Below are positions 3,844-13,433 of a stretch of 64,000 nucleotides of DNA, one piece after another. The notes beneath the pieces were generated by a model. It saw only the letters and a list, made by a program, of their open reading frames with translations, searched no databases and was not told the origin of the DNA. The first letter of the stretch is position 1; every line of letters starts with the position of its first letter. The translations under genes were made by a program, and so were the position numbers. This DNA comes from Flavobacteriales bacterium (GTDB taxonomy: Bacteria; Bacteroidota; Bacteroidia; UBA10329): positions 33,947-97,946 of the forward strand of contig JBIKWM010000008.1 in NCBI GenBank assembly GCA_044356305.1, given 5' to 3'.

Positions 3844-4161
3844 CTACTCCAATTCAAACTGCTTACCTATCTCCATGCGTCCGTTAATCACCGCCAGGAC
3901 CGTGATACCGTTCGCCCCATCCGGGTCATATATGATGCGGTAGCCCCGATAGACGATCTCCCGTAGCGTGTGCAAGGGCGTTCCGACAAACTCAGGTACT
4001 GCGCGCCCCATGTGGCGGTTGTTCGGAAGGTGCTCTTCCGTTGACTGCACCAGACGCTGTACAAAGCGCCATGCATATACCTCCGAGTCATGCGCAATGA
4101 ACTCATAGATGGCCCGGAGATTGGCCTCCGCCCTGTGCGACCAGATCACACCTTGCGCCAC
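3844..4161 (-). CDS. type II toxin, RelE/ParE family
   Basis: 105 aa, ...IYDPDGANGITVLAVINGRMEIGK typical ParE/RelE fold signature. Overlaps the upstream small ORF by 16 nt. Confidence 0.75.
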   Translation of the reverse strand: MAQGVIWSHRAEANLRAIYEFIAHDSEVYAWRFVQRLVQSTEEHLPNNRHMGRAVPEFVGTPLHTLREIVYRGYRIIYDPDGANGITVLAVINGRMEIGKQFELE

Positions 4162-4340
4162 GCGTTCATCCGCTCCAGAAGTTCCCCTGTGCTGGCCACC
4201 TTGCCCATTTCCGCATCACTCATCCCCTGAAGCACCTGGTCGATAAGGTGCAGCTCGTTCATGATGTCCTCCATCTTGCTCTCAGGGGGCATCTTTTTCA
4301 GAACCTCAATGCTCGTATCTACTAAGGGTGTGGTTGCCAT
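4146..4340 (-). CDS. putative antitoxin partner of the RelE/ParE toxin
   Basis: 64-aa ORF immediately upstream of and overlapping the toxin gene (operon position). Confidence 0.55.
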   Translation of the reverse strand: MATTPLVDTSIEVLKKMPPESKMEDIMNELHLIDQVLQGMSDAEMGKVASTGELLERMNAWRKV

Positions 4341-6326: not shown

Positions 6327-6700
6327 GTCCTTTGGTTTTGCTTACACTGCTGATACAAAACTATAGAAAGGAGCCTGTGCGCGAAAGGATATCGACAGAC
6401 GGCCCGCGCATCACCCCCTTTACGCAACTGATCGTCCTTTTAGGCGCAGAGCTGAAAGGATGGTGGAGCGGTGCGACAGCGAGAAGATTCCCTCCAGCGG
6501 GTTCGGAAGGAGTATGTAAGGAGAGACCCTTCCAAGTATTGATATTTCTTTCCGATGATGCGCTCACCGTAAATAGGTTACGGTGTGGGTGGGGAGGTTT
6601 GCGGGCGTTTTGAAAACCTGTTAGTTCTTTTTCTCAGACTCAATCTTGAGAAAAAACGTGTCCGTAGATTTGTCCGTGTCCGTAAAACAGTCCGCAACAG

Positions 6701-8911
6701 ATGGCAAGCTATAATTTTTACCTCGATAAGGCCGATAAGAAGGGCTATTCGCCTATCCACCTACGGATCAATTGCGATGGAGAGCAAGTGAAGATTGCCA
6801 CCAAAGAGAAGGTGAACCCGGAAGACTTTGACAAGAAGAAACAAAGGGTCAGAACTGGCAGAGACCGTGCTGAGGCTATCAACCATTATTTGGAACAACT
6901 CCAACAATCGGCAGAGGAGGTGTTCTCAAAGTCAAGCAAAGGAAGAGTGACCTTTGATGAAGTTAAGAAACGGCTGACTGATGTAGTCGATTCCTATAGG
7001 TCTTACAGCAATGTGTCGATGGTAAAGGAGCAATTAGGGCTCTACCGAACTTCTTTCACATTCATAGATCTTTTTGCCGGTGCTGGGGGATTCAGCGAGG
7101 GCTTCCTTCAAGCTGAATACAACAACAAGGTTTTTGATTTCATTGCCGCCAGCGATATCAATGAGAACTGCGAACTGACCCATGAGGTGCGTTACAATCA
7201 TCAGCTCGGGTTAGATATGAAGTTTCTGCGGCAGGATATTACAGCACCTGATTTCCTCGATAATCTACTTGCTGCCGTTGGAAAGAGAAAGATTGATGTG
7301 GTTTGTGGAGGCCCTCCTTGTCAGAGCTTCAGTTTGGCAGGTAAGAGGCGGAAGTACGATAAGAAGGATGACCTGTTCGCGCATTACTTAGAGGTGATCC
7401 GTGCCCTGCGCCCCAAGTATTTTGTGATGGAGAATGTAAAGGGGATATTGACTAAGGAACAGGGTAAGATCGCTGAAGAGATCCTCAAGGAAATGCAGTC
7501 AATCATTGATCTTGAGGGGTTGCCAAAGCTGACTGCATTTATAAGGGTAATCAAGGGGAGGGCGTCAGAAAGGGATATATTGTTGGATAGCATTGCCAAT
7601 CGGCTTAAGCAGGAAGGCCTCAAGGATCAAGAACTAGAAAAAGCGAGGGAAGAGTACATTGGTGTCCTTGATACTTTCTTCAAACAGCTCACCCCGTTGA
7701 TCGCTGACTACAAGACGAGCAAGACCGATGGTAGGATAAGCACAATAAGGCATGGGCTCAACCTTTTACAGCGTAGGACACGCCTCATGCGACTGCGTCA
7801 GGAAGTGATCAAGGAGAAGGACCTGAATTATCTGGATAACGATGCATTTGAGGCTGATTTCAATGCATTCATCCATGCTTTGGAACCCGAGACAATCGTA
7901 GAAAGGATATCATCGGCTTTCGATGCCCTTGTTGTTCCAAAGGCCCATCAGGCCGCGATAGATGGTTTCAAAGAGGCGCTAAGAATTTACACCGCCACAT
8001 TTGATGATTGCATTGAGCGGTTGCGTGCCCTTTGTAATAGTCAAGAGAAAGAAAAGCTCGAGATTATTTTGGAGGAAATCAAGCTGTACCGGATCAATTC
8101 ACCACTTGTTGTCAACTCGTCTGATTATGGTGTGCCTCAGAACAGGGAGCGGGTTCTGTTCATAGGATGCAGAAAGGATCAGAAACTTATCGGCTCGGTG
8201 CCCGCTACGGTCGGGCCCAATGAGAAAGTGTCGGTATTCGAGGCACTTTATGACCTTGATTTTCTTGGCAATAATGAAACCGCCACCCATTACCGGGAAA
8301 TTGACCTCAAGGCCCGATACAATGGATCAACAGCCCGCATGTTGGGATTGATCAAGAAACGCTCTGTGGATGGTGTGCCACAAGATCAGGAAGGCATGAC
8401 CTACGCTCAATGGAGCAGAGAAGGAAGATTACTGTCAGATTATGAGGTCAGGAAACCCGTGTATGTTCGAAATGATGAGGATCTTAAGAAAGGGCGGTTC
8501 GTTCACGAGCCCCTGCCTAATCATCAGACCAGTAACCAGAGCGATAAAGTCGTTCAGCGATTAGAGATTATCCGGAAATCCGGAGATTATAAGCTTGCGC
8601 AATCTGCCCTGTCAGAGGTAGGGCTCAGTTCAGAAAAACGCAACTACTCAGTGCTGCACCCTGAGAAGCAGAGCCCCACTGTGATGACCATTGCCGATGA
8701 CTATGTGCACTACCGGGTGCCCCGTGCCCTGACCGTGCGAGAAATGGCCAGACTACAATCGTTCGATGATTCGTTCGTATTTCAAGGTAAGCGATCCACA
8801 GGCGGCAATGGCCGGAAGTTTGAAATCCCTCAGTTCACGCTTGTGGGGAATGCAGTGCCGCCATTGATGGCGAGAGCAGTGGCGATGGAGATTTTGAGGA
8901 ATATCCGTTAA
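6701..8911 (+). CDS. DNA (cytosine-5)-methyltransferase, Type II R-M; N-terminal 106 aa resemble an integrase arm-type DNA-binding domain
   Basis: Motif I FIDLFAGAGGFSEGF, motif IV GGPPCQSFSLAGKRR, motif VI ENVKG, motif VIII QNRERVLFIGC, motif X GNAVPPLMARAVAMEI. Alternative internal start ATG at 7019 (MVKEQLGLYRTSFTFIDLF...). The region is AT-richer than the flanks. Confidence 0.9.
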   Translation: MASYNFYLDKADKKGYSPIHLRINCDGEQVKIATKEKVNPEDFDKKKQRVRTGRDRAEAINHYLEQLQQSAEEVFSKSSKGRVTFDEVKKRLTDVVDSYRSYSNVSMVKEQLGLYRTSFTFIDLFAGAGGFSEGFLQAEYNNKVFDFIAASDINENCELTHEVRYNHQLGLDMKFLRQDITAPDFLDNLLAAVGKRKIDVVCGGPPCQSFSLAGKRRKYDKKDDLFAHYLEVIRALRPKYFVMENVKGILTKEQGKIAEEILKEMQSIIDLEGLPKLTAFIRVIKGRASERDILLDSIANRLKQEGLKDQELEKAREEYIGVLDTFFKQLTPLIADYKTSKTDGRISTIRHGLNLLQRRTRLMRLRQEVIKEKDLNYLDNDAFEADFNAFIHALEPETIVERISSAFDALVVPKAHQAAIDGFKEALRIYTATFDDCIERLRALCNSQEKEKLEIILEEIKLYRINSPLVVNSSDYGVPQNRERVLFIGCRKDQKLIGSVPATVGPNEKVSVFEALYDLDFLGNNETATHYREIDLKARYNGSTARMLGLIKKRSVDGVPQDQEGMTYAQWSREGRLLSDYEVRKPVYVRNDEDLKKGRFVHEPLPNHQTSNQSDKVVQRLEIIRKSGDYKLAQSALSEVGLSSEKRNYSVLHPEKQSPTVMTIADDYVHYRVPRALTVREMARLQSFDDSFVFQGKRSTGGNGRKFEIPQFTLVGNAVPPLMARAVAMEILRNIR

Positions 8912-9819
8912 CGAAATCGAAAGTATTCAAATCTTCCCCCAGCCCTGAACTCTTCAAGGTTCTCAGACATGTCCTGAAGGATGGAGCGGCTATAGCCGGG
9001 CATATAATTGTTTGCGAAAATCTCCTTGATGGAGCGGGCCACATTCTCTTTTGTCTCTTTACCCCAATAGTTGCCGCCTGAAAGATTGGTGACACGCTTC
9101 ACGGCCACAGAATCAGATTTGTATTGCGCCCTAACATTAGAAGGGACGGTTATGAAGGCGTAAGTGAACGAGGCACACATCTGGATGCTGAACGAGTTGC
9201 GCCCGATGGTGATGTTGCGTCCTCGGAAACCGCCCGCAGAGTAGATCATGTCCCATAGCATAGGAATCTGGGCATTGTCATTCCAATTGGTCTTGCATTG
9301 GATGATGCCGATGCTGAAATCTGAGAACTGATCTGCGACCGCGCGGTCGAGGGCTGCGTAATTGATCTGTCCATTGCTATTGAGGAAACCGCTCTCTGCG
9401 GCATCGGCAGTGAACAATGGCATATCGGGGAAAATGATGACGGTGATATCAGATTCCGTGTTGCACGAGAAATTGCCGTAATTCACGGTAATGGCGTCTT
9501 GAATTGGCTTGGGCACAAGGCTCATTTTCTTGATGGCGACCACCCTAGTACCAGCGGTGCAGAGGTTAACATACCAAGCTACGAGCGATTCCCATGCCGT
9601 TCCGCCAGCGGATACCTCGCCCTGTCCGCGCCCTGTTCCGCCCGTACTCGTGAAGATCTCCGAAAGGTGATTGCCCAGATTCAAAAGATCCTCTGCACGT
9701 GGATTGGCACCAATTCTCCGCTGTATCTGTTCACTCCAAACAGGCCAGCACGATTGAACCGTATCCGTAGAGAAAACCGACTCTACAGCTTTCTTTCTTA
9801 TAACCTCGACAATGTTCAT
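8908..9819 (-). CDS. putative Type II restriction endonuclease (cognate of the C5-MTase)
   Basis: 303 aa from ATG at 9819 (MNIVEVIRKK...); the track ORF extends to 9927 with a G-rich, unlikely N-terminus. Convergent with the MTase and overlaps it by 4 nt. Possible PD-(D/E)xK-like signature ...VIIFPD...(x)...DFSIGIIQCK. No recognisable family beyond context. Confidence 0.5.
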   Translation of the reverse strand: MNIVEVIRKKAVESVFSTDTVQSCWPVWSEQIQRRIGANPRAEDLLNLGNHLSEIFTSTGGTGRGQGEVSAGGTAWESLVAWYVNLCTAGTRVVAIKKMSLVPKPIQDAITVNYGNFSCNTESDITVIIFPDMPLFTADAAESGFLNSNGQINYAALDRAVADQFSDFSIGIIQCKTNWNDNAQIPMLWDMIYSAGGFRGRNITIGRNSFSIQMCASFTYAFITVPSNVRAQYKSDSVAVKRVTNLSGGNYWGKETKENVARSIKEIFANNYMPGYSRSILQDMSENLEEFRAGGRFEYFRFR

Positions 9820-9956
9820 GGGGCCAAAGGAACGGCATTTGATGGAATGAGGCTGTTTGAGTAACCCCACGCCCCCCCGTCCCACACGTCCCCCCTGTCC
9901 CACATCAACGCCTCCCTTCCCGCACACACTTTCATTGCGGGGAGGTTATGCCCCCA

Positions 9957-10313
9957 CTATTTCCTGTTCTTGATGATTTCCTCTATCAGCGCCCTCACCG
10001 CCTTCCACAGAGCAGTCGTCTCAGACGTGCTCAGGTGCTGCAGCAAAGCCGCCAGGTCCACTCCCTTCACAGGCTCCACCTTGGTCATCGGGTGGTTCTC
10101 GGCCGTCCCCGTATAAATGAACAGCTCGTTCATCGTACAGTCGAATAGCTCACAGAGCCGAACCAGATGCTTCCCCTTATAGTTGTCCACCTTCAGGTCA
10201 AGCAGCGTCCGCACCTCACTCCTCGTAAATCCGTTATTCCTCAAGTGCGAGCTCAGATCTTTCACTTGCTTGTTCTTGGCCAGTTCCTTCAGGTTCAGCT
10301 GCAGCTCTTTCAT
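9957..10313 (-). CDS. HTH (XRE-like) DNA-binding protein, candidate R-M controller (C) protein
   Basis: 118 aa. HTH segment LRNNGFTRSEVRTLLDLKVDNYKGKHLVRLCELFDCTMNELF. Lies directly upstream of and co-oriented with the REase candidate, the classical C-protein position. Confidence 0.6.
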   Translation of the reverse strand: MKELQLNLKELAKNKQVKDLSSHLRNNGFTRSEVRTLLDLKVDNYKGKHLVRLCELFDCTMNELFIYTGTAENHPMTKVEPVKGVDLAALLQHLSTSETTALWKAVRALIEEIIKNRK

Positions 10314-10436: not shown

Positions 10437-10700
10437 TTGCCTCCGCCACCGCCACGTGTGGTGCCGCCCCCACCACATCAGGCACCCTCACCGCCATGTG
10501 TGGTGCCGCCACAGCCACTTATGGCGCCCCCACCGCCATGTGTGGTGCCGCCACAACCACATCAGGCAGCGCCACAGCCACGCATGGCAACGCCACCACC
10601 ACGTGAGGTGCCGCCACCACCACGTGCGGTGCCGCGGCCACCGCAACAGCGCCCGCCCCGACACATAATTCCATCGCCCCCCTCGCTTCCACCACAGCCA
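10437..10700. repeat. degenerate tandem repeat (~21-nt units in ~42-nt higher-order periodicity) rich in CACGTG/CATGTG cores
   Basis: Units ccaccgccacgtgtggtgccgcc / ccgccatgtgtggtgccgcc / accaccacgtgaggtgccgcc, at least 6 copies, in a divergent intergenic region. In one frame it encodes a proline-rich ORF (10437..10766) ending with an ATGA overlap onto the next gene. Confidence 0.7.
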
Positions 10701-12043: not shown

Positions 12044-12508
12044 TTACTCTCCGTCTTCATAGTCAAAGGCTTCTCTCGGGTTTCGAATCTCCAGGATCTG
12101 GTATCCCTTCAACAGATTTATGGCGTTATAGCCATGAATTCTCTCAATGTTCACGATGTGTTTGAAATTCCAGCTCACCAATAGGTCAGCCCTGTAGAGG
12201 GTGGCCAAGGCAATATGATAGCAATCGGCCCGGCTTGATCTGCCCACCACATTCGCATTGAGGTAGGCCTCTGCGAGGAGAATGGCTTCTTCTGTGAGTT
12301 CCACTCTGATGAGGTTCTTTTCAGCAATCTGACCTACGAACTGTCGTACAGCCTCTGGTGCATTGACCAGTTCATCTTCAGCCACATCGGAAAAAATCAG
12401 TCGGATGTCGGTCTTATCAACCTTCCTGAAAAAGCGATCGGTCCACTCTGCGAATTCCCTATCAAACCTGCCTCCAAAGACCGAAGTGTCAACATATATC
12501 AATCGCAT
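12044..12508 (-). CDS. PIN-domain (VapC-like) ribonuclease toxin
   Basis: Start at ATG 12508 (MRLIYVDTSVFGG...). The track ORF extends upstream through repeat copy B, which is spurious. PIN acidic residues D6...E...D are present. Confidence 0.7.
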   Translation of the reverse strand: MRLIYVDTSVFGGRFDREFAEWTDRFFRKVDKTDIRLIFSDVAEDELVNAPEAVRQFVGQIAEKNLIRVELTEEAILLAEAYLNANVVGRSSRADCYHIALATLYRADLLVSWNFKHIVNIERIHGYNAINLLKGYQILEIRNPREAFDYEDGE

Positions 12509-12552
12509 GAAACAAATGTAGTGTTTCCGCAAATAGTTGATTCCCGCTTCCG

Positions 12553-12664
12553 GCCCAAACAGAAAGCGACCCACGCGGGCCGCTTTTCTTAGGATATGTG
12601 CACAGACCTTACTCCCCCTTCGCGAAACGCGCCACCTGCGTGGTGCCATCGGGCAGGGTTCAGG
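12553..12664. repeat. orphan copy B of a T9SS-CTD gene 3' end plus hairpin
   Basis: Shares cccaaacagaaagcgacccacgcgggccgcttttcttaggatatgtgcacagaccttactcccccttcgcgaa with copy A, then continues like the 13566-13620 coding 3' end. Confidence 0.6.
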
Positions 12665-13162
12665 TCAGAGTTCGTACAACGGCCTCTCACCATGACTTTC
12701 TAGCAACGTATTGAGTAAGGGTAGGGAATAGTAGCGCCCGCTGGTGATGAAGGCAGAGAAAAGTGGCCTGAGCTCAGTGATCAGACCTTTGTTTTTTGCT
12801 GCCACAAGAACGCCCAAGGTGCCAACGCATGAGATGCCGAGCGTTTCGGCTATGCGTCTGGCCTTTCTGTCATCAATCAACAGGAAGTCGGCCTCCATCT
12901 CCTTGCAGAGCATAACGGCCTCCGACTCGCCATCGTCCATCATGAAAGTGAGCTCATTGATGCCCTTCACCGCGCGCACCTTATCTTGGAAGAACGCATG
13001 AATGCGGTGATGGTGAGGGGTTGCGGGGTCAGATGTGACCTCGTGCCAAACGGCATCGGGGATCAGAATATGTGAGAATAGCGAAGGCAGAATATGTAGC
13101 CGGTCTATGATCGCCAATGAGAAAATGGGGCCAGAGTCTGCAACAACCTTCTGCCCACGCAT
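12665..13162 (-). CDS. DUF3368-type PIN-like toxin
   Basis: 165 aa. Partner of the upstream UPF0175 ORF, with a 1-nt spacing. Confidence 0.7.
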   Translation of the reverse strand: MRGQKVVADSGPIFSLAIIDRLHILPSLFSHILIPDAVWHEVTSDPATPHHHRIHAFFQDKVRAVKGINELTFMMDDGESEAVMLCKEMEADFLLIDDRKARRIAETLGISCVGTLGVLVAAKNKGLITELRPLFSAFITSGRYYSLPLLNTLLESHGERPLYEL

Positions 13163-13163
13163 G

Positions 13164-13433
13164 CTACTTCAGCTTTTTGACATCGGCCATCACCTCATCA
13201 ACAGAAAGGTGAGAGATAGCGACCGCGTTGTTCGATAGGAGCTTCTCGAACTGTAGGCGGGGCAGTCCTGCAAGCTGAGCGGCCTTGCCTATGGTGAGTT
13301 TCTGTAGGCCATAAAGCTGAACAGCCAAAGTGACCTTGACCCGCTGTGTGATTTCCTTCTCCGTCTCGTTGAGTGCCAGAAGGATATCGGTCGGAAGGTC
13401 GATGGAGATGGTGTGAACGGAATTAGAGGCCAT
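13164..13433 (-). CDS. UPF0175-family antitoxin
   Basis: 89 aa, ...LPTDILLALNETEKEITQRVKVTLAVQLYGLQKLTIGKAAQLAGL... Matches the known UPF0175/DUF3368 pairing. Confidence 0.7.
   Translation of the reverse strand: MASNSVHTISIDLPTDILLALNETEKEITQRVKVTLAVQLYGLQKLTIGKAAQLAGLPRLQFEKLLSNNAVAISHLSVDEVMADVKKLK

Follow-up and report, generated by a model that had tools for sequence, protein, structure and literature searches.

A C5-cytosine methyltransferase with an integrase-type arm domain and a conserved direct-repeat element at its promoter: a probable self-regulating module in Bacteroidota

Within a stretch of 64,000 nucleotides (nt) from a Flavobacteriales bacterium (GenBank assembly GCA_044356305.1, contig JBIKWM010000008.1, positions 33,947 to 97,946 of the forward strand; the whole stretch is called the window here, and positions are counted from its first letter), one gene encodes a protein in which an arm DNA-binding domain of the tyrosine integrase type is joined to a C5-cytosine methyltransferase (MTase). 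Directly in front of the gene stand four direct repeats of the hexamer GTCCGY. The domain and the repeats co-occur strictly in both directions among related loci, and the same layout of sites, promoter-like box and domain is found at the closest integrase genes. The explanation that we favour and regard as probable is that an integrase gene was the source of promoter, arm-type operator and arm domain, all three captured together as a single module, and that the methylase now represses its own promoter. Part of this explanation is that the gene would encode an active type II C5-cytosine methyltransferase of a restriction-modification (R-M) pair. The gene and its parts are the following.

6701..8911, forward strand: gene for the fusion of arm domain and C5-cytosine methyltransferase, 736 amino acids (open reading frame; PF17293 and PF00145, TIGR00675 dcm, PADLOC MTase_II).
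6701..7018, forward strand: integrase-derived N-terminal module, residues 1-106, with a three-stranded sheet (residues 3-38) and helices (residues 57-80 and 85-113), then a flexible linker.
7055..8908, forward strand: C5-MTase core, with motif I at residues 123-130 (DLFAGAGG), PCQ at 206-208, ENV at 244-246, QNRER at 480-484 and GNAVPP at 716-721.

The original prediction, which was made from the DNA letters alone, had likened the first ~106 residues to the arm-type module of integrases. A profile search of residues 1-110 bears this out, as PF17293 (Arm-DNA-bind_5) is matched with E 6.9e-11 and 43.0 bits against a gathering score of 22.6, residues 9-77 falling on model positions 6-74 of 87. 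Besides this, the Pfam scan of the same residues gave just a sub-threshold match to CmlS_C and no helix-turn-helix family. In AlphaFold2 (AF2) models the domain is built of strands 3-8, 17-25 and 28-38 and a helix from residue 57, with a predicted local distance difference test (pLDDT) score of 82-92 in two independent runs, and linker residues 101-117 score below 50. The strand-strand-strand-helix topology of residues 1-70 agrees with the published description of arm-binding domains as a three-stranded sheet followed by a helix (PMC8138268). Structure searches gave no independent confirmation of the fold, and a sequence search of the PDB with residues 1-120 returned ankyrin-like chance matches and nothing else. 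The full-length AF2 model is poor (pLDDT 61), and use was made only of its parts for arm domain, linker and the helical insertion mentioned below.

The remainder of the protein, residues 119-736, is a C5-cytosine methyltransferase (PF00145, E 4.6e-56) and scores 166.7 bits with TIGR00675 (NCBIfam dcm), for which the cut-off is 100.65. The matches to PF00145, NCBIfam dcm and PADLOC MTase_II all start at residues 118-121, which agrees with the earlier remark that no methylase motif precedes residue ~122. Motifs I (FxGxG), IV (PCQ), VI (ENV), VIII (QxRxR) and X (GN) are all invariant in an alignment of 26 homologs having 59-80% identity. Neither Phage_int_SAM nor Phage_integrase was matched (Pfam) in the 736 residues, and the protein has no integrase catalytic domain. 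Between motifs VI (ENV) and VIII (QNRER) there is a helical insertion of ~210 residues (residues 247-460, window 7439-8080; pLDDT 76-92). The cassette at ~6400-9900 has 45-52% G+C against a background of 60-65%.

How widespread the fusion is was assessed in two ways. The database comparison covered the 120 best matches, so counts of full-length homologs are to be read as at least 120. These proteins are 732-781 residues long, align over 100% of the query at 59-100% identity and, in 119 of the 120 cases, are already annotated with both PF17293 and PF00145. The genome scan used one genome per GTDB species and confirmed 568 relatives. Among the best 80 of them, 67 match from residue 1-6, two are cut by contig ends and 11 are arm-less. 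The 67 arm-bearing loci come from Flavobacteriales, Cytophagales, Chitinophagales, Sphingobacteriales, Bacteroidales, Saprospiraceae and Balneolaceae, and the arm-less enzymes mostly from gut Bacteroidales, Akkermansia and Gastranaerophilales. The latter have 620-627 residues, a length sufficient to hold the ~210-residue helical insertion too, and start ~15 residues before motif I at the equivalent of residue ~106, the point where the fusion junction lies.

An integrase remnant had been offered originally as one origin of the N-terminus, together with the possibility that translation starts at the internal Met codon at 7019. The codon is indeed there, in frame, as Met107, and the arm-less relatives start at the equivalent position, so the upstream frame might be a non-functional fossil with the enzyme translated from Met107. 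Yet the residue at this position is I or L in 24 of the 26 aligned homologs. The N-terminal module, for its part, is conserved to the same degree as the catalytic core in this alignment, with 27 invariant positions in residues 1-67 and a common Met-Ala start; as a check on whether the N-terminus is conserved in other long methyltransferases, the alignment thus gives a positive answer. No frame disruption of the N-terminus occurs among at least 120 proteins, and the start Met, together with the upstream element described below, is conserved in 68 of 68 loci. In the window, 6701 is the first start codon possible after a stop. The pattern indicates that a full-length fusion with a shared start Met is under purifying selection across many Bacteroidota families. 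Because the full-length fusion is old, widespread and conserved and Met107 is not, we regard an untranslated or passive remnant as excluded for practical purposes, the least probable of all the readings considered. What stands of the original suggestion is the integrase ancestry itself, since the module derives from the 5' end of an integrase gene, apparently along with promoter and arm sites.

The four direct repeats noted originally in front of the gene were found as described, all on the forward strand, and form part of a longer element. Its components are listed here with positions relative to the predicted transcription start.

6659..6697, forward strand: conserved cis element of two 18-nt units, tGTCCGT-AGATTT-GTCCGT / GTCCGT-AAAACA-GTCCGC-aa.
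6660..6665, forward strand: repeat R1, GTCCGT, predicted -17..-12; GTCCGT in 47 of 50 non-redundant loci.
6665..6672, forward strand: predicted sigma-A -7 box TAGATTTG, consensus TAnnTTTG; first base shared with R1, last base with R2.
6672..6677, forward strand: repeat R2, GTCCGT, predicted -5..+1; in 46 of 50 loci.
6678..6683, forward strand: repeat R3, GTCCGT, predicted +2..+7; GTACGT in many relatives and absent from short two-repeat versions.
6690..6695, forward strand: repeat R4, GTCCGC, predicted +14..+19.
6621..6653, forward strand: private, hairpin-forming insertion of ~33 nt, seen in alignment with the three closest loci (74-75% protein identity).

The clustering of the repeats is far beyond chance, because only 26 GTCCGY were counted on the two strands of the whole window, where dinucleotide shuffles predict 59.9 +/- 7.6. 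A Poisson estimate from the window counts puts the chance of four copies on one strand within 36 nt, anywhere in the window, at about 1e-5. GTCCGY is thus ~2.3-fold depleted, with 22 copies outside the operator in 128 kb of strand. Three of the four repeat copies are preceded by T. The element consists of two 18-nt units, in each of which the two hexamers stand 12 nt apart (an 18-nt duplication, repeat family D9), and five loci have a single unit. The sites are direct repeats with no inverted symmetry among them.

In an anchored search, all 68 arm-bearing loci, the window counted among them, proved to have the element immediately before the ATG, and the consensus of the ~40 nt before the ATG reads tGTCCGT-AAATTT-GTCCGT-GT(C/A)CGT-AAAAay-GTCCGy-aa. 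Mean pairwise nucleotide identity among 50 non-redundant loci is 95% for the 19-nt core and 89% for the 37-nt element, compared with 36% in the 60 nt upstream, 62-64% in the first 75-135 coding nt and 42% at third codon positions; sequences further upstream are unrelated among loci. A 27-mer of the element has 111 exact matches in metagenome contigs, and all of the 80 that were fetched have an open reading frame with the Arm-MTase start (M[AI][TN]x[NK]FYLDK) within 28-55 nt downstream. Each locus has the element once only, and the far end of the cassette is without it. Scanning viral contigs with a 17-mer gave 12 matches, none of them beside a methylase, a number close to chance for a 17-mer.

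In the opposite direction, the repeat cluster was not found in ten arm-less loci (L071-L080) that have the same MvaI/BcnI-type partner gene. The eleventh arm-less enzyme, L064, is nested among the arm-bearing ones (57% identity) and keeps just GTCCGTAAATTTG, that is, R1 and the -7 box; this locus lost the arm domain secondarily. The two-way co-occurrence supports the earlier suggestion that the repeats are arm-type or operator sites.

The other half of the original proposal, that the fusion is a genuine DNA-targeting one, is correct as to the fusion, which is real and full length in at least 120 proteins. A sequence-specific DNA-binding domain that is joined by a flexible linker to a DNA-modifying enzyme could also tether this enzyme to GTCCGT-containing DNA for methylation, or extend its recognition sequence. 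Against such a role, arm-less relatives are paired with the same MvaI/BcnI-type endonuclease, so that the domain is dispensable for protective specificity, and the element contains neither a palindrome nor a CCNGG-like site. GTCCGY is depleted rather than enriched in the window, and the tandem sites stand solely at the enzyme's own promoter. We consider targeting of methylation very unlikely; it is more likely that the domain regulates the gene.

The integrase origin of the module is seen both in the protein and in the DNA in front of the gene. A word-indexed protein search with the N-terminus alone gave 10 short fragments, and integrases were reached by an exhaustive profile search against 1.84 billion representative proteins, which returned 996 matches. 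After fragments of the methylase family, the best of these are proteins of 400-450 residues matched at their N-termini with E 1e-12 to 1e-8, and all six that were tested have the architecture Arm-DNA-bind_5, Phage_int_SAM_5 and Phage_integrase. Residues 1-86 of the window protein and 1-85 of integrase P0158 are 44% identical and colinear from Met1 (BLASTP, E 3e-14). The upstream regions of integrase genes were compared for six close loci and about fifteen distant ones. Immediately 5' of the gene of each of the six closest integrases with readable DNA stands a pair of direct repeats at a distance of 12 nt, and five of these pairs flank a -7-like box.

Integrase P0167, 5' of the gene: GTCCGT-ATATTT-GTCCGT, ~18 nt before the ATG.
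Integrase P0176, 5' of the gene: GTCCGC-TATATT-GTCCGT.
Integrase P0158, 5' of the gene: GTCCGT-AAAATA-GACCGT-AAAA.
Integrase P0164, 5' of the gene: GACCGT-AATATT-GACTGT-AAAA.
Integrase P0183, 5' of the gene: GTCAGT-GTATTT-GTCAGT.
Integrase P0188, 5' of the gene: two pairs of ACATTCCCCT, 12 nt apart.

Distant integrases from viral contigs have GTATAT-ATATTT-GTATAT or GTGTGT-ATATTT-GTGTGT at this place, and an exact self-match of at least 7 nt at offset 12 occurs in 13 of 21 integrase upstream regions (shuffle p from 0.05 down to <0.0005). Since the layout is constant while the hexamer varies with the protein, the hexamers are read as the cognate sites of the domain that is encoded downstream. 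The simplest history would be a single capture, in which an arm-less methylase gained at its start the 5' end of an integrase gene, with the promoter, the arm-type sites, the arm domain and the linker helices. Additional direct-repeat arrays were seen upstream of the closest integrases, four copies of CTGACACCG in L208 (~95-140) and two ACATTCCCCT pairs in L295 (~150-250), and may be further arm sites or sites of accessory proteins.

The shared hexamers raise the question of whether the methylase communicates with mobile elements. Integrases P0167 and P0176 share both the GTCCGT/GTCCGY hexamers and their spacing with the methylase element, and because the methylase is proposed to have kept their GTCCGT specificity, the methylase and the integrases could bind each other's sites: the methylase the att arms or int promoters of integrases of the same specificity, or those integrases the methylase operator. 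R-M expression would then be coupled to excision of an element, or movement of the cassette would be helped. The varied genomic contexts of the cassette, in defence or toxin-antitoxin islands, are in line with this. However, each locus has a single element and no second one at the other end of the cassette, conserved integrases are lacking in the neighbourhood and the window is without tRNA or flanking repeats, and local regulation alone explains the fixed register of the repeats with the -7 box. Cross-talk as the explanation of the element is therefore quite unlikely in our view. The broader idea that a portable autoregulatory module jumped from integrase to methylase with its GTCCGT specificity kept, so that R-M expression and element excision or integration are wired together in Bacteroidota, is speculative and fares slightly better, though still at long odds.

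A promoter can be recognized within the element itself. In Bacteroidota, the sigma-A -7 box is TAnnTTTG (PMC2483708, PMC9723704), and in Flavobacterium it lies at -12..-5, with a median 5' untranslated region (5'UTR) of 24 nt (PMC9723704). Read through from the final T of R1 across the spacer to the initial G of R2, the sequence is TA(A/G)ATTTG, which fits this consensus. Positions of the core carry 1.9-2.0 bits of information, and 1.3-1.4 bits at just the two "n" positions of TAnnTTTG. Both the consensus and the closest relatives have a TTG or TTTG 19 nt upstream of the -7 box. From these features we infer a transcription start near 6677 and a leader of 24 nt; the implied 5'UTR is 22-27 nt across loci, agreeing with the Flavobacterium median (PMC9723704). 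A sigma-70 promoter scan gave nothing near 6660, the scan model being not applicable to Bacteroidota.

With a start near 6677, R3, R4 and part of R2 would be transcribed, and the repeats might act in the 5'UTR as a protein-bound translational operator or as RNA structure. R1 and the short two-repeat forms would lie mostly outside such a transcript, though, and the repeats lack a complementary partner. Double-stranded DNA is what arm domains are known to bind. The register between repeats and -7 box is constant, the ATG lies at a variable distance of 20 to 55 nt and the predicted leader is unstructured (z +1.15), and because of these three features control is placed at the level of DNA and transcription; RNA-level control is highly improbable.

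The promoter of the window copy departs from that of its relatives. The imperfect hairpin that had been noted in front of the repeats exists but is weak (6628-6655, an A+T-rich imperfect stem of 11 bp; DNA free energy -6.5 kcal/mol, with z -2.0 relative to shuffles). It occurs once in the window. It was rejected as a part of the regulatory element, being a private insertion of the window and not in the conserved element. The ~33-nt insertion separates the ancestral -33 TTTG (6609-6612) from R1 and the -7 box. A TTG brought in by the insertion (6646-6648) now stands 16 nt before this box, in place of the 19-nt spacing.

Autorepression, the reading preferred here, would work as follows. The arm domain, the N-terminal ~106 residues, would recognize the GTCCGT direct repeats before its own gene, where the repeats interlock with the promoter: R1 abuts the predicted -7 box, R2 lies on the last base of the box and on the predicted start, and R3 and R4 fall in the first ~20 bases to be transcribed. 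As long as methylase is scarce, the promoter would fire. When methylase accumulates, the arm domains of two to four molecules would fill the tandem sites, which are 12 bp apart on one helix face, and because occupied sites would exclude RNA polymerase, the enzyme is proposed to repress its own transcription. In most relatives an endonuclease gene follows the methylase in the same operon, and for this reason the loop is proposed to set the level of both enzymes. In the window, the endonuclease candidate is convergent with a 3' overlap, and less methylase transcription would also relieve antisense interference on the endonuclease gene.

Several points weigh against this proposal. When isolated and deprived of cooperative partners, integrase arm domains are often weak binders. 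That the effect is repression and not activation is assumed from site position only, and a literature search gave nothing relevant on binding, footprint, start site or expression of any member of the family. In the operon arrangement, autorepression alone leaves unexplained how methylation precedes restriction on entry into a new host. Because the 33-nt insertion displaced the ancestral -33 element, the window promoter may behave differently, and it may be weaker or differently organised than the family norm. Finally, conservation of TAAATTTG and of TAAAA after R3 could partly reflect signals of the promoter or of translation initiation (PMC2483708), not protein binding.

The sign of the control deserves separate consideration. 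Bound at R1, at -17..-12 and so within reach of sigma for an activator, the arm domain could recruit or stabilise RNA polymerase, which would give activation, or activation at low and repression at high occupancy. Many loci have a weak or variable -33 element, which in the window is displaced by the insertion, and C proteins are known that activate and then repress at tandem sites (PMC2175313). Positive or mixed control is nevertheless unlikely, as R2 and R3 span -5..+7, a classic occlusion position, R2 is retained in the minimal two-repeat versions, and a gene dependent on its own product for its start could not establish itself in a new host.

The R-M context of the methylase differs between the window and most of its relatives. 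The next gene is a co-directional restriction endonuclease of the MvaI/BcnI family (PF15515, E 3e-72) in 48 arm-bearing and eight arm-less loci by strict assignment, and in 68 by cluster membership. An operon is indicated by the start of the endonuclease gene at -4..+11 nt from the methylase stop in 36 of these loci. The window has two other genes here.

8908..9819, reverse strand: convergent partner gene, candidate restriction endonuclease, 303 amino acids from Met37 of the open reading frame 8908..9927; 3' end in a 4-nt overlap with the MTase gene.
9957..10313, reverse strand: gene for an HTH_26 protein of 118 amino acids, upstream of the partner gene (PF13443, E 9e-6).

A convergent partner of 303-314 residues occupies the same tail-to-tail position in the window, in eight genome loci and in the close relatives L206 and L207. 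It has no match in Pfam, NCBIfam, PADLOC or the PDB, and the family comprises 1844 relatives of ~303-314 residues, all annotated as "hypothetical". By its position, the partner is a candidate restriction endonuclease of an uncharacterised family that substitutes for the MvaI/BcnI-type enzymes. The HTH_26 protein, controller-like by position, was rejected as a conserved controller of the system: it has no homolog in any related locus, and because of this absence the gene may be a recent local acquisition.

The cassette is situated in a defence and addiction island. Toxin-antitoxin-type genes flank it at 3844-4340 and 12044-13433, both on the reverse strand (ParE toxin, PIN-domain protein, and a DUF3368 and UPF0175 pair). 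Among the relatives, L205 stands beside AbiEii and L207 beside a second R-M system with an HNH_2 nuclease. That an integrating element had delivered the R-M cassette, as first suggested, finds no trace in the window, which has no integrase catalytic domain in the fusion protein, no tRNA and no convincing flanking direct, inverted or att-like repeats; nor is any integrase near the cassette conserved across related loci. In five loci (L035, L055, L060, L064 and L066), an HhH-GPD/endonuclease III-like glycosylase of ~230 residues with an Fe-S motif adjoins the R-M genes downstream and, by analogy with Vsr, may be a T:G mismatch repair partner for the C5-methylase. A two-gene insert between methylase and endonuclease genes, coding for a GmrSD_N-like protein of ~381 residues and a protein of ~358, was seen in L003, L008, L020, L047, L048, L060 and L205. 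Beyond the HTH gene, the window has at 10438-10668 eight tandem copies of a G+C-rich 21-nt unit, with open frames on both strands and a heptad period if translated.

A DNA-binding domain was seemingly exapted along with its own binding sites and promoter. The hexamer pairs 12 bp apart offer testable DNA specificities for a Bacteroidota integrase family and could help to locate att arms and int promoters. The Arm-MTase family is found in hundreds of species genomes, many of them of marine and freshwater Flavobacteriia, Cytophagia and Chitinophagia, and being so widespread it may be a frequent barrier to genetic manipulation. In addition, synthetic biology in Bacteroidota could make use of the ~45-bp element and the 106-residue domain as a compact feedback module.

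Phage integrase genes provide a precedent for autoregulation through arm-type sites that overlap the promoter. Similarly, the integrases closest to the arm module have a pair of sites flanking a -7-like box immediately upstream of int, presumed to be the ancestral state of the module, and autoregulation of these Bacteroidota integrases through their arm-type sites is what we infer from this arrangement. The IntCTnDOT-like integrases of Bacteroidota (Arm-DNA-bind_5) have a homologous domain from Met1, with three strands plus a helix, and tandem direct repeats beside the gene (PMC8138268). In the methylase, on the other hand, a methyltransferase replaces the core-binding and catalytic domains, and because recombination site, second arm and excisionase are lacking, the sites would serve for binding and regulation only and not for synapsis.

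Among R-M systems, those with C proteins (C.PvuII, C.Kpn2I) also have a small DNA-binding module that sets timing and level from tandem promoter operators (PMC2175313, PMC6237814), but their regulator is a separate helix-turn-helix protein co-transcribed with the endonuclease, whereas here it would be a domain of the methylase. The closest parallel in logic is the SsoII type (M.SsoII, M.Ecl18kI and relatives), likewise C5-MTases of type II R-M systems with an N-terminal DNA-binding extension before motif I, attached by a flexible linker (PMC3978073). M.SsoII represses its own gene through the N-terminal domain, which binds a 15-bp palindrome located at +7..+21 (PMC6100179). In both cases the operator overlaps the enzyme's own promoter or early transcribed region, an overlap that is predicted from the consensus in the present family, where repression is likewise proposed, and the partner endonucleases of the relatives described here belong to the MvaI/BcnI family that cuts CC(N/W/S)GG. 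The parts are different: the SsoII domain is helical, C-protein-like and binds as a dimer to a palindrome, whereas here a beta-sheet arm domain of integrase origin faces two to four direct repeats interlocked with a Bacteroidota -7 box, and the Pfam scan of residues 1-110 detected no similarity between the two domains. The SsoII endonuclease gene is divergent, whereas here it is downstream in the operon or convergent. The M.SsoII operator AGGACAAATTGTCCT (PMC6100179) and (A/G)ATTTGTCC of the element (window 6666-6676) share the word ATTGTCC, probably by coincidence, the binding domains being unrelated. A literature search found no paper linking an arm DNA-binding domain with a methyltransferase. 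To our knowledge, self-regulating methyltransferases are known only with helix-turn-helix domains and palindromic operators. The regulatory logic is thus already known, and the part used, the direct-repeat operator interlocked with the -7 box and the joint capture of cis and trans components appear to be new: the same logic has apparently been built a second time from an unrelated part, the arm-binding domain of an integrase.

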